A DNA stretch of 4,267 nucleotides, taken from the IMG/VR virus record IMGVR_UViG_2693429584_000019. One strand, written 5' to 3'. Position 1 is the stretch's first letter. Every line of letters starts with the position of its first letter. The notes under the pieces are model-generated. The model searched no databases and was not told the origin of the DNA. It worked only from the letters and a program-made list of their open reading frames with translations. Source of the DNA: a virus (Duplodnaviria; Heunggongvirae; Uroviricota; Caudoviricetes). Positions 1 through 3,927 of this stretch are shown here, one piece after another. The position numbers and the translations under genes were made by a program.

Positions 1-177
1 CTCCTCCGGCAGAAGCAGAAAAAGCTTATTATGCTTCCATCGGAAACGATGATCTGGCAGCCTGAGTTCACAGATAAAATACTCTCCAGGAAACCCGGGG
101 CGGTTCAAAGCAACTTGCAGCCTCTGTTTTGGCACAATCAAACAAAGGGCGTAAGTGACAAATTACAGGGAGAGTAA
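1..177 (+). CDS. 3' end of an unidentified gene entering from the left edge (58 sense codons, stop TAA 175-177), convergent with the integrase; first visible cargo gene of the asnT-linked element
   Basis: Frame 1 on the plus strand is the only frame open from position 1 to the TAA at 175-177. The stop sits in the loop of a terminator-like hairpin (166-187) followed by a T-run. Too short to assign a product. Confidence 0.3.
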   Translation, partial: LLRQKQKKLIMLPSETMIWQPEFTDKILSRKPGAVQSNLQPLFWHNQTKGVSDKLQGE

Positions 178-228: not shown

Positions 229-1503
229 TTATTGTTTCTGAGCAAACTCAAACGGCCTGACCATCCCATCCCGGTTTGCATCAAGATAATCTGCCCACCA
301 CTGTAGCATCAACCTTCGCTGCTCAAGATGTTTGGCCTTATGGGTATAGGCAGCACGAACGCTGTTGCTTTCCTTGTGGCTCATTTGAAGTTCTACCGCA
401 TCTTCAGACCATAGCCCTGATTCAATCAGAGCACTACATGCCAGCGTGCGGAAACCATGACCGCAGATGTCCTGCGTGGTGTCATAGCCCATCTTACGTA
501 GCGCTTTATTGATGGTGTTTTCACTCATGGGCTTGAACGAGTCATAACAGCCCGTAAAAATTAACCCCGCCTCATTACCTTCTTCATAGGTAAGCTGGCG
601 GATCTCTTTCAGTATTTTAAGAGCCTGCCTGCAGAGGGGAACGAAGTGCTGGCGTTTCATTTTTGCGCCACGCGTGGAATATTTGACGCGCTCAATCGCT
701 TCACGCTTTTCTGGTATTACCCATAACTTACTGTTGAAGTCGATTTCTGACCATCGTGCATAGCGGAGTTCACTGGAACGAATGAAAATCAACAGATTGA
801 GTTTAATCGCCAGTGTAGTTAGTCCACGACCTTTGTAGGCATCAATACGTTCAAGCAGTAGCGGGATCTCTTCCAGCTCCAGTGCAGGGCGGTGTTCCGT
901 CTCTGGTTTCTGGACAGCGCCTTCCATATCATAGGCCGGATTATGACGCATAAGCTTTTGCTGGACGGCATGACGTAGGATCGCGGTGATGTATTGCTTA
1001 ATCCGCATGGCAATTTCAAGGTAGCCGAGTGTTTCTGCATTTTTAATCGGAACAAGCAGATCACCCGTATCCAGATCTGAAACGTTGCTGTCGCCAATAT
1101 CCGGGAATACATAGGTCTCAAGGCGCTTCCATACCGTATCGGCGTAATCTTCTGACCATTTTGTTTTGGTGGCAAACCAGCTTCTGGCGACGACACGGAA
1201 CGAACGGGTTTTATCCCGCTTTTCCTGCAGCGCTTTTTCATCAGCCAGTTTTTTAGCGTTAGGATCGACTCCCTGAGCAAGCAGCTTTTTTGCTTCATCA
1301 CGTCGTTGTCTGGCATCAGCAAGAGAAACCGCAGGGTAAACACCAATGGAAAACACTTTCTGTTTACCATCGAAGCGATAGCCTAACTGCCAGTATTTTG
1401 AACCATTGGGATGCACAAGAAGGTAGAGACCAAATCCATCAGTGAGCTTGACGGCTTTTTCCGCTGGTCTGGCATTTTTTACTTTAGTATCAGTAAGTGA
1501 CAT
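229..1503 (-). CDS. P4-family (IntA-like) tyrosine integrase, 424 aa, apparently intact
   Basis: Supplied ORF 229-1569 trimmed to the ATG at 1503-1501 (MSLTDTKVKN...), preceded by GGAGGG 7 nt upstream. The product has the P4-family N-terminal region (GLYLLV..., PAVSLADAR) and the C-terminal catalytic region (HGFRT..., NSVRAAYTH...EQRR.M.QWW.DY) from memory of P4 Int. It lies about 180 bp from the 3' end of tRNA-Asn in the same orientation, the usual P4-type arrangement. Confidence 0.9.
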   Translation of the reverse strand: MSLTDTKVKNARPAEKAVKLTDGFGLYLLVHPNGSKYWQLGYRFDGKQKVFSIGVYPAVSLADARQRRDEAKKLLAQGVDPNAKKLADEKALQEKRDKTRSFRVVARSWFATKTKWSEDYADTVWKRLETYVFPDIGDSNVSDLDTGDLLVPIKNAETLGYLEIAMRIKQYITAILRHAVQQKLMRHNPAYDMEGAVQKPETEHRPALELEEIPLLLERIDAYKGRGLTTLAIKLNLLIFIRSSELRYARWSEIDFNSKLWVIPEKREAIERVKYSTRGAKMKRQHFVPLCRQALKILKEIRQLTYEEGNEAGLIFTGCYDSFKPMSENTINKALRKMGYDTTQDICGHGFRTLACSALIESGLWSEDAVELQMSHKESNSVRAAYTHKAKHLEQRRLMLQWWADYLDANRDGMVRPFEFAQKQ

Positions 1504-1682: not shown

Positions 1683-1758
1683 TGGCTCCTCTGACTGGAC
1701 TCGAACCAGTGACATACGGATTAACAGTCCGCCGTTCTACCGACTGAACTACAGAGGA
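1683..1758 (-). tRNA. asnT: tRNA-Asn (anticodon GUU), 76 nt with encoded CCA
   Basis: Minus-strand sequence TCCTCTGTAGTTCAGTCGGTAGAACGGCGGACTGTTAATCCGTATGTCACTGGTTCGAGTCCAGTCAGAGGAGCCA folds as a cloverleaf (7-bp acceptor stem, T-loop TTCGAGT, anticodon loop CTGTTAA). It matches E. coli tRNA-Asn as I recall it. The asnT name rests on position next to mtfA, as in K-12 (serU-mtfA-asnT). Confidence 0.93.
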
Positions 1759-1858: not shown

Positions 1859-2656
1859 TTAATGAACATTCGTCGCCGAAAACGAGTCTGTATCATTAGT
1901 GCGATGTAGTCTCTGCAAAGGATCTTGTTGATAAAATTGGCAGAAACGTTGCCACAATGAAGGGAAACGAGGAGCAAAAAGTTCTGGGGCGCTAAAGAAA
2001 TATTCAGAAAGTACGGCAAAACATTCAGCAGGATCACTGGCAGCATAAGCATCAATGCTCGCCGCATTCTCGCCAACCAATTCGATTTCTTCCTGAATGT
2101 TGTTCATTGCAGCATGAAGATCGTGTTCCCAGCCAGCAACCTCACGCAACGGAATAAAGGGAACTCCGCTGGCGCGATCGCCGTTACGGGTGTCCAGCTT
2201 ATGAGCGACTTCATGAATAATCAGGTTAAAACCAGAAGCATCAAAAGAATCTTGTATATCCAACCAGTTCAAAACGATAGGCCCTTGCTGCCAGCTCTGA
2301 CCTGACTGAACAATACGTTGGTTATGCACCAGACCGATATCGTCTTCCCATTCATCATCGACCACAAATGGCGCAGGATAAATTAAGACTTCATGAAAAC
2401 CATCCAGCCATTCCAGTCCTAACTCCAGAACGGGTAGGCAAAATAGAAGTGCTATCCGGCAGCTTCTTAATGAATCCAGTTCAAAGCCCTGTAAAGGAAC
2501 AAGCCGCTTTTGCTGTAAAAAACGTTCGGCAAGAGTGACTAATTTGCTTTGTTCCTGTTCCGTCAGACACGTTAAAAGGGGGATCGATAGTGCTTCCTGC
2601 CAGGGAAGGGCAGTTTGATGTGCTGATTCTTGTACTTTCCAGGGCCACTTAATCAT
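1859..2656 (-). CDS. mtfA: MtfA (Mlc titration factor A; zinc-dependent peptidase with HExxH motif), 265 aa
   Basis: Supplied ORF 1859-2695 trimmed to the ATG at 2656-2654 ([11 protein letters not shown]...), stop TAA at 1861-1859. Contains the HEVAH zinc-binding motif and matches the E. coli MtfA (YeeI) sequence as I recall it. The divergent serU and downstream asnT fit K-12 synteny. Confidence 0.9.
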
Positions 2657-2705
2657 CGTTTTGCTCGCAAACTCGTCACTTGAACAAAATTGCACGGACA
2701 GGGAC

Positions 2706-2714
2706 TGTTAAAAT
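2706..2714 (+). promoter_or_regulatory. Candidate extended -10 element (TGtTAAAAT) for serU
   Basis: TG at 2706-2707 and TAAAAT at 2709-2714, 36 nt upstream of the tRNA 5' end. No good -35 at 16-18 bp spacing (TTGAAC at 2680-2685 is 23 bp away), so the call is weak. The 93-bp mtfA-serU intergenic region must also hold the mtfA promoter. Confidence 0.3.
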
Positions 2715-2749
2715 GCCAAATTTCCTGGCATCATGGCAACCATCTGAAC

Positions 2750-2839
2750 GGAGAGATGCCGGAGCGGCTGAACGGACCGGTCTCGAAAACCGGAGTGGGG
2801 GCAACTCCACCGGGGGTTCAAATCCCCCTCTCTCCGCCA
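2750..2839 (+). tRNA. serU: tRNA-Ser (anticodon CGA), 90 nt class II tRNA with long variable arm and encoded CCA
   Basis: GGAGAGATGCCGGAGCGGCTGAACGGACCGGTCTCGAAAACCGGAGTGGGGGCAACTCCACCGGGGGTTCAAATCCCCCTCTCTCCGCCA. Anticodon stem CCGGT/ACCGG, loop CTCGAAA with anticodon CGA at 2784-2786, T-arm GGGGG-TTCAAAT-CCCCC, 7-bp acceptor stem. Divergent from mtfA as serU is in K-12. Confidence 0.92.
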
Positions 2840-2883
2840 AAATTCAATCACTTATACATCATTAAGTCAGTGACAAAAATCAC

Positions 2884-2931
2884 ACTTGGAATTACTTGGA
2901 ATTACTTGGAATATTTTCTTGGAATATTTTC
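2884..2931. repeat. Tandem direct repeats spanning the stop codon of the lambda-type integrase: ACTTGGAATT x about 3 (2884-2912) overlapping TTGGAATATTTTC x 2 (2906-2931); candidate arm-type Int binding sites of the att region
   Basis: Read directly. The TTGGAAT core occurs four times (2886, 2896, 2906, 2919). The two perfect 13-bp units encode the integrase C-terminus (ENIPRKYSK); the 10-bp units overlap the TAA stop (2904-2902). The array lies 45-92 bp past the serU 3' end. Confidence 0.8.
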
Positions 2932-3927
2932 AGGTAACGGGACATCAAGTGTCGGTGAAACTTTAACCTTCCTGTCATAGATTAGCACTTGCCCCTCGGT
3001 TTTGTGACCAGAGAAAAGTTGCTTATCCCGACTGCTTCCTTCATAGTCTGAAATTCCTTTCGCCTTCAGATCATGAAAGGTGAAGTCGGTTAAAATACCT
3101 GAAATTTTGCCTGCGCGATTTCTTGCTTCTACCCACATTTCGTTAAAGCCTTTGTACATATATCGGTTGCCGTATTGATTACTGATTACATAGGCGGATG
3201 TTGGTAACTGTTTTGCTTTTTCGATCGCCGCCTGTAATCGTGGACTCCATGCTTTTATCTGTTTTTTTCCTGTTTTCCCTTGCTGGATAAAGATTCCGTC
3301 GTTTCCAATCTGCTCCCATTTCAGCGATAACACATCGGAAACCCTCGCTGCACACAGATAGGCAATTTCCATTGCGATAAAAACAGGAAGAGGTGCAACG
3401 CTTAATACTGCCTGGTATTCTTTGTCGGTTACATATCGTTCGCGGTTTTTGGCCTTGAATTTACTTACACCTGCACATGGGTTAGCCTTCACGTACCCTC
3501 GCTCATACCCCCAACTGTAAACGCGGGACATACTGCTTTTTTCATGGTTGGCTTGCGTTTTACTCTGTTCCCCTCTCTTGTCCATGTATCGACGGATGTG
3601 TTCTGGTTTTATGGAATCTGCCGGCACCTTACCGAATACGGCAAGCAACTTTTTTTGATGTTGCAGATAATCTTTTTGTGTTCTTGGACTGAGGTCACTG
3701 TAATAGGCGCTGGCGAGGAATTTTTCCCACAAGCGACCGAATGTCATTGCACGATCGCGATTATTTACAGTTTCCTCATACTTTTTCCATAAAGCAGCTA
3801 AACCATCCTTGATGGCGGTTAGTGTGACAGATTCTCTGGATGTTGGTTTCCATACATAACTATATTTATTTGGGTATACATTTGGAGGTAGTTTTTCGTG
3901 TTCAGGATTTTTCCTTCGTCTTCCCAT
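2902..3927 (-). CDS. int: Lambda-type tyrosine integrase, 341 aa, apparently intact
   Basis: ORF with ATG at 3927-3925 (MGRRRKNPEHEKLPPNVY..., compare lambda Int MGRRRSHERRDLPPNLY). The C-terminal catalytic region has H-x-L-K...GH-K...LIYDR with a candidate catalytic Tyr. The gene is transcribed toward the serU 3' end, the lambda-like int-att arrangement. Confidence 0.9.
   Translation of the reverse strand: MGRRRKNPEHEKLPPNVYPNKYSYVWKPTSRESVTLTAIKDGLAALWKKYEETVNNRDRAMTFGRLWEKFLASAYYSDLSPRTQKDYLQHQKKLLAVFGKVPADSIKPEHIRRYMDKRGEQSKTQANHEKSSMSRVYSWGYERGYVKANPCAGVSKFKAKNRERYVTDKEYQAVLSVAPLPVFIAMEIAYLCAARVSDVLSLKWEQIGNDGIFIQQGKTGKKQIKAWSPRLQAAIEKAKQLPTSAYVISNQYGNRYMYKGFNEMWVEARNRAGKISGILTDFTFHDLKAKGISDYEGSSRDKQLFSGHKTEGQVLIYDRKVKVSPTLDVPLPENIPRKYSK

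Follow-up and report, generated by a model that had tools for sequence, protein, structure and literature searches.

What is the array of short tandem repeats that supplies the last codons of a prophage integrase and then continues past its stop codon toward the serine tRNA gene serU? The question arises in a 4,267-nucleotide stretch of viral DNA (Caudoviricetes; IMG/VR record IMGVR_UViG_2693429584_000019), referred to here as the window, which corresponds to the asnT-mtfA-serU region of Escherichia coli. The prophage is lambdoid, is integrated in serU and belongs to the same family as Sp14 of O157:H7 Sakai; the gene whose end the repeats occupy, int, encodes its integrase (Int). In all likelihood these repeats form the P' arm of a left attachment site (attL) of the lambda type, a judgment made from sequence pattern and from the resemblance of the locus to that of phage lambda.

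The array is built from two units, one of 10 bp that we name a (CTTGGAATTA) and one of 13 bp that we name b (CTTGGAATATTTT). Tandem Repeats Finder returns ACTTGGAATT in 2.9 copies at 2884-2912 and CTTGGAATATTTT in 2.1 copies at 2905-2931, each at 100% match, and a script that joins the left flank, two a units, two b units and the right flank rebuilds the window exactly, giving the array as a-a-b-b. The octamer CTTGGAAT is present in four tandem copies at 2885-2925 and nowhere else in the window; likewise, the heptamer TTGGAAT is found at 2886, 2896, 2906 and 2919, always on the plus strand, with no other copy in the 4267 bp. The last nine codons of Int (ENIPRKYSK) are the reverse complement of the two b units, and the stop codon closes the second a unit (Table 1). 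Both observations confirm the initial annotation of this DNA, which had described a 13-bp unit duplicated inside the coding sequence and a 10-bp unit repeated across the stop codon.

The same annotation had pointed to a 9-bp palindrome, GTCAGTGAC, at 2866-2874. It is present, but we reject it as a feature: chance alone is estimated to give some 17 palindromes of this 4+1+4 form in 4.3 kb, and the diverged O55:H7 strain TB182A has a disrupted version of this one (GTCAGTGAT). No terminator or promoter was found in a scan of 2650-3050, nor any RNA structure on folding the int-sense strand of 2840-2960 (z = -0.6), and these two results rule out a sib-like or terminator role for the region.

Evidence for a P' arm comes from the far end of related prophages. 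In the 50-kb locus of strain KE51, where a second copy of the 3' part of the tRNA marks attR, CTTGGAAT occurs seven times against 2.25 expected (0 of 100 shuffles reach seven), and five of the seven copies lie in the attachment-site arms, three in attL and two in the P arm of attR. Measured from the centre of the anticodon loop, the two attR copies are at -119 (direct, plus strand) and -54 (inverted, minus strand). The P arm of O157 Sp14 attR has CTTGGAAT at -120 (direct, plus strand) and TTTGGAAT at -54 (inverted, minus strand), and the attL and attR copies are 43-45 kb apart. Otherwise the P arms of KE51 and O157 have diverged, with the core and the blocks GCTTGGAATATTCT, TGATTTTTC, ATTTATTCCAA and TTGATTTT conserved in the alignment. 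Two of these blocks are T-rich and belong to matches to the consensus of integration host factor (IHF), WATCAANNNNTTR, at -92..-80 and -37..-25; together with the candidate site H' at +57..+69, these consensus matches have the order and strands of lambda H1, H2 and H'. The complete series runs P1(+), H1(-), P2(-), H2(-), core, H'(+), P'1-3(+), and lambda attP, scanned with the same tools, yields the identical order of elements on the identical strands. Even the overlap with the gene has its counterpart, as in lambda the stop codon of int (313-315) falls inside P'3 (locus 307-316).

The suggestion, already made from the window, that the array is the Int-binding arm of attL is thus well supported: in each of two diverged prophages, for both of which that arm is now identified, the attR P arm has one direct and one inverted copy of the octamer, and the layout with IHF-consensus sites matches lambda attP element by element and strand by strand. 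A whole-word literature search for serU returned no description of these arm sites. The lambda P' arm sites P'1-P'2-P'3 are reportedly the subject of work by Ross and Landy from 1982. The architecture of arm sites and IHF in lambda attP and attL is textbook knowledge (Laxmikanthan et al. 2016, PMC4880445).

The limits of the crossover were taken from an alignment of attB (strain REL606), attL and attR. Identity between attL and attR begins at C2778, within the anticodon stem's 5' strand, and continues to 2855. Loci with an unoccupied serU stop matching the window at about 2855, and partial tRNA-Ser copies borne by phages match it over 2778-2855. In the variable arm, attL has G2797 and C2808, where attB and attR have A and T. 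Because identity starts at C2778 and phage and host differ at 2797 and 2808, strand exchange must fall within 2778-2796, and the anticodon loop CTCGAAA (2782-2788) is likely the 7-bp overlap. The alignments place the crossover in the serU anticodon stem-loop, and all window DNA to the right of the stem-loop is phage P' DNA. As is characteristic of integration at an anticodon stem-loop, the block of identity extends from the anticodon stem past the tRNA's 3' end, and an intact tRNA is restored.

The serU gene of the lysogen is a chimera, with the part 5' of the anticodon loop coming from the host and the part 3' of the loop from the phage, and the G2797-C2808 pair that replaces A-T is a compensatory double difference brought in with the phage-supplied 3' half. 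Two records labelled 'phage' with full-length matches, vB_EcoM-606R7 and vB_EcoS-689R5, are prophage predictions that include host DNA, and neither yielded a true attP. The empty attB of REL606 has a perfect IHF consensus, TATCAATGACTTA, just 3' of the tRNA (locus about 1745-1757), at the position of the phage H', and the B' side of attR also has a perfect consensus at the H' position (O157 Sp14 locus 45634-45646); the attB consensus may have been left behind by earlier integrations, or it may be a functional element that is shared. Downstream of attR in KE51 (42925-49900), the DNA differs from the B' flank of REL606 and encodes DUF6387, H-NS-like and RepL-like proteins among others, which suggests a second element integrated in tandem at serU.

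Int has Pfam matches to PF00589 (E = 3e-11), PF22022 and PF14659, and a phmmer search matches it to lambda Int structures (1z1b, 5j0n; E = 8e-13). The two proteins are about 22% identical; their alignment starts at residue 1 (MGRRR..LPPN.Y), spans the N-domain and reaches the catalytic domain, where GHK..Y317 of Int aligns with GHK..Y342 of lambda Int, making Tyr317 the catalytic tyrosine. After this tyrosine Int has 24 residues against 14 in lambda Int, so the earlier statement that its tail is longer stands, although the excess is 10 residues and not the 13 given there. The lambda Int tail after Tyr342 is regulatory. The conserved part of the present tail, YDRKVKVSPTLD, matches it in position following the catalytic tyrosine, whereas the variable residues lie beyond the part conserved among homologues; that the tail modulates the activity of this Int, as in lambda, is speculation.

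Homologues of Int at 48-62% identity are found in phages mEp390, 118970_sal3 (Salmonella), vB_SmeS_BUCT709 (Stenotrophomonas) and ZF40 (Pectobacterium). Each of the four has its own motif of 8-10 bp in two to four copies just 3' of int, and once inverted and once direct beyond a tRNA fragment: ATGGCGAA in mEp390, TTTTCTCA in 118970_sal3, ATTCTAAG in BUCT709 and ATATTAGGAA in ZF40. The sequence of int, tandem repeats, tRNA 3' fragment and inverted plus direct motif copies is common to all of them and to the serU prophage. Phage 118970_sal3 carries a tRNA-Ser(CGA) fragment and also targets serU. The motif of BUCT709 differs from that of the window by one base, the N-terminus of its Int is the most similar to that of the window Int, and the end of its int gene, stop included (..KNSK*), overlaps the first repeat. 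In 118970_sal3, mEp390 and ZF40, by contrast, int ends before the repeats with a hairpin terminator, of which the window has none. The alignment of homologues ends at ..SPTLD, near residue 328 and just before the repeat-encoded residues, which are therefore lineage-specific; this supports the view, put forward with the first description, that the repeats shaped the Int tail. O55:H7 TB182A, only 79% identical in the neighbouring int DNA, retains three TTGGAAT sites, and its tail reads PQNIPTKYSK with its length unchanged.

Taken together, these features suggest how the module would work. Each CTTGGAAT(A/T)(T/A) unit would be an arm-type binding site for the N-terminal domain of a heterobivalent Int. 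By analogy with lambda, IHF would bend the DNA at H' and thereby let Int docked on P' get to the core sites within the anticodon stem-loop of serU, and DNA cleavage and strand exchange would take place there. The partner arm in attR would supply P1 (direct), H1, P2 (inverted) and H2. The int open reading frame (ORF) reads through the two inner putative sites and ends at a TAA in the spacer of the next, and because of this the last nine residues of Int would be a by-product of the sequence that forms the binding sites. We infer that one perfect 13-bp b unit is occasionally gained or lost by replication slippage or unequal exchange, and each such gain or loss changes how many P' sites there are and in which frame the Int tail is read (341, 345 or 360 aa). 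The window itself is a private variant with one extra 10-bp a unit, four putative P' sites and the same protein.

Several points weigh against this reading. The assignment of arm sites draws on analogy and on the pattern of the sequence; Pfam returned no arm-binding model for Int residues 1-60, the N-domain being backed by the pairwise alignment with lambda Int only; and H' has one mismatch to the IHF consensus, a consensus scan of the window P' arm having found no exact match and just this one site with a single mismatch. In addition, the P' sites lie at +100 to +140, compared with +54 to +84 in lambda, with the tRNA 3' half intervening, and the b units are spaced at 13 bp, compared with 10-11 bp.

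Lambda and the serU prophage both have a heterobivalent tyrosine Int (in our case predicted, as are the sites), three tandem direct arm sites of about 10 bp by the 3' end of int, a direct P1 and an inverted P2, H1, H2 and H' in the same order and on the same strands, and in both a P' site overlaps the int stop. They differ in the motif (CTTGGAATAT here, C/AAGTCACTAT in lambda) and in the place of the core, which here lies in a tRNA anticodon stem-loop, the tRNA 3' half moving H' and P' some 45 bp outward. The overlap with int is 27 nt here, or two whole sites, as opposed to 4 nt, and the inner pair of sites consists of perfect tandem 13-bp copies whose number varies. Sites for recombination proteins in attL overlap the integrase gene in another E. 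coli prophage, KplE1 (CPS-53), as described by Panis et al. 2010 (PMC2951348); there the overlap involves the intS promoter and transcriptional autoregulation, and not, as here, the 3' coding end and the protein tail.

That copy number varies in nature was established by a scan of 5426 complete E. coli genomes, about 1152 of which (some 21%) carry the serU integration module. Alleles were counted with junction queries of 35-39 nt whose longest stretch in common with any other allele is under 28 consecutive bases; counting by megablast with queries of 81 and 107 nt was abandoned, as it joined split pieces into matches of 100% coverage, although the match span did reveal one a-b-b-b-b genome. 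The a-b allele is found in 45 genomes and three or more b units in 27, one of them a-b-b-b-b, leaving a-b-b, by subtraction, in about 94%. A second survey, a gapped-pattern scan of one-genome-per-species contigs and metagenomes, gave 56 loci, of which 50 are a-b-b, 2 are a-b-b-b and 4, all metagenome contigs, are a-b-b with a point variant, CTTGGAATATTGT, in the first b unit. The variant breaks the perfect 13-bp tandem and should reduce slippage. The a-a junction of the window, searched as a 35-mer, has no match in the 5426 complete genomes or the 56 other contigs; one of the two a units is thus extra relative to all other genomes examined.

Flanking single-nucleotide polymorphisms define three haplotypes. 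T/C/T is associated with a-a-b-b (the window), a-b-b, a-b-b-b (DCE7) and a-b-b-b-b (Z1323HEC0355); C/T/T with a-b-b, a-b (strain 119) and a-b-b-b (O157 Balcarce_14.2); and T/T/G with a-b-b (KE51) and a-b (N17). Since each haplotype carries several alleles, copy number has changed repeatedly. How many b units are present determines the frame in which the Int tail is read. Both a-b-b and a-a-b-b are predicted to end in ..PENIPRKYSK (341 aa), the extra a unit of the window leaving the protein unaltered because it lies past the stop codon. For a-b the predicted tail is ..PENIPSNSKCDFCH, ending ..PSNSKCDFCH (345 aa); for a-b-b-b it is ..PRKYSKKIFQVIPSVIFVTDLMMYK, ending ..VIFVTDLMMYK (360 aa), with the stop 8 nt from serU; and for a-b-b-b-b it is ..KKIFQENIPSNSKCDFCH, ending ..ENIPSNSKCDFCH. 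RefSeq annotations agree with the predicted tails of a-b and a-b-b-b. The initial annotation anticipated that a change in copy number would rewrite the Int tail; this is now supported by four natural b-unit states, with 345, 341 and 360 aa for the first three, and comparison across serU prophages finds that repeat number and integrase C-terminus both vary naturally.

At several loci (O157:H7, 1768-2815; KE51 and sequence type 131 [ST131], 1768-2818), RefSeq and its Prokaryotic Genome Annotation Pipeline (PGAP) label the majority a-b-b int a 'frameshifted' pseudogene, even though its ORF is intact at 340-341 aa and excision has been reported for Sp14. The label looks like an annotation artefact arising from reference proteins of the rarer a-b or a-b-b-b alleles. 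Strain FORC 064 (NZ_CP022664.1) has two arrays about 18.5 kb apart (1970798 and 1989337), one a-b-b and the other a-b, which suggests two int/att modules in tandem or rearranged prophages at serU.

Such variability invites the question of whether the array is a contingency (phase-variable) locus, in which selected 13-bp slippage toggles the Int tail and the number of P' sites, tuning or locking excision where cargo such as tccP/espJ or cytolethal distending toxin (CDT) is of benefit. Four b-copy numbers do exist in nature and recur on three flanking haplotypes, every change in b shifts the frame and gives a new tail, as expected of frame-changing repeats, and the whole O157:H7 TW14359/EC4115/SS17/SS52 group is a-b-b-b. 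Truncating the lambda Int tail, moreover, alters cleavage and recombination activity. We nevertheless consider such a locus quite unlikely. Some 94% of about 1150 genomes and 54 of 56 other contigs share one state, a-b-b, and the roughly 6% of non-majority alleles are, in this between-genome comparison, largely fixed in lineages instead of flickering. A 13-mer at two or three copies slips rarely; retention of three sites and a ..NIPxKYSK tail at 79% DNA identity points to purifying selection on one state; and homologues do without the repeat-encoded residues, so that these are unlikely to be needed for catalysis. Because one state predominates and is kept in a diverged lineage, the copy-number variants are probably occasional, neutral or mildly deleterious events in resident prophages, not a selected switch.

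Another reading takes the repeats themselves to be functionless, neutral, microsatellite-like products of slippage at the int 3' end, with the true Int arm sites elsewhere. The perfect identity of the b units, as for a recent duplication, and the drift in copy number would fit; against it stand the octamer at conserved positions and orientations in a P arm 43-45 kb off, amid diverged sequence, its conservation in TB182A and the analogous motif set, in the same layout, in every homologous phage. This alternative is very unlikely. The octamers (motif CTTGGAATAT) might instead bind not the Int N-domain but an accessory protein: the DUF4224 excisionase candidate, Fis or some host factor. The DUF4224 candidate is an uncharacterised protein, and according to Asadulghani et al. 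(PMC2669165) the Xis candidate of Sp14 lacks recognisable DNA-binding motifs and is considered non-functional. Lambda Xis sites, however, are confined to the P arm, between P2 and H2, while the present motif is in both arms, in the exact P1(+)/P2(-)/P'x3(+) pattern of lambda Int arm sites and alongside separate IHF consensus sites, and we regard accessory-protein sites as most improbable. The P' arm of attL is the reading we retain.

Table 1. Features of the window, with coordinates and strand; attachment-site elements are predicted.
Feature	Position	Strand	Remarks
P4-type integrase	229-1503	-	Arm-DNA-bind_3 domain; adjoins tRNA-Asn
tRNA-Asn (asnT)	1683-1758	-	
mtfA	1859-2695	-	Named from annotation of homologous loci
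serU, tRNA-Ser(CGA)	2750-2839	+	ARAGORN
Inferred attL core	2777-2793	+	Anticodon stem CCGGT / loop CTCGAAA / stem ACCGG
Candidate IHF site H', ATTCAATCACTTA	2842-2854 (+57..+69 from loop centre)	+	1 mismatch to WATCAANNNNTTR; strand and relative position of lambda H'
Putative P' arm-type site, unit a1 CTTGGAATTA	2885-2894	+	
Putative P' arm-type site, unit a2 CTTGGAATTA	2895-2904	+	Final 3 nt (2902-2904, TTA) form the minus-strand stop codon of int
Putative P' arm-type site, unit b1 CTTGGAATATTTT	2905-2917	+	Within int coding sequence; conserved in O55:H7 TB182A
Putative P' arm-type site, unit b2 CTTGGAATATTTT	2918-2930	+	Within int coding sequence
int, lambda-family tyrosine integrase, 341 aa	2902-3927	-	ORF and Pfam; stop codon 2902-2904
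DUF4224 protein, 67 aa	3927-4130	-	Pfam PF13986, E = 2.8e-16; overlaps int start

The gene directly upstream of int, encoding the DUF4224 protein, occupies the same place in BUCT709 and mEp390, and the mEp390 copy is annotated as a putative excisionase. The protein is likely the excisionase (directionality factor) of the module, and DUF4224 probably the excisionase family of this integrase clade. The Sakai O157:H7 prophage at serU is Sp14 (PMC8190617). Its Int was assessed as intact, and Sp14 DNA in circular form was found after treatment with mitomycin C (PMC2669165), which speaks for function of the majority allele. Relative to the window, one codon is missing from the putative arm-binding N-domain of the O157:H7 Sp14 Int (locus 198-1220; KYSVWKP in place of KYSYVWKP). 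Prophages of the Sp14 family carry tccP and espJ in O157 and cdtABC in KE51, an extraintestinal isolate whose prophage measures 42.7 kb. On the far side of the window, an exact IHF consensus, TATCAACTGGTTA, lies at 1625-1637 on the minus strand, between the P4-type integrase gene and tRNA-Asn, and in a related record yersiniabactin genes (ybtQ, salicylate synthetase) come after the asnT P4-type integrase.

It is conceivable, though unlikely, that the P' array is an evolvable switch, in which the gain or loss of 13 bp changes the stoichiometry and phasing of docking sites together with the Int tail, altering excision or integration and so stabilising or mobilising a prophage with virulence cargo (tccP/espJ, cdt) in lineages such as the O157:H7 TW14359/EC4115 group. 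On the reading preferred here, the array belongs to an ordinary architecture with a small twist, from which the lambda paradigm gains little conceptually. The gain is a sequence-level map of predicted att elements (core, three IHF sites and at least five arm sites) for one of the commonest prophage integration modules of E. coli, and an explanation of why the majority integrase allele is labelled 'frameshifted' at NCBI despite an intact ORF. The natural allele series (a-b, a-b-b, a-b-b-b, a-b-b-b-b and a-a-b-b) would also be well suited to testing the role of arm-site number against that of the Int tail.

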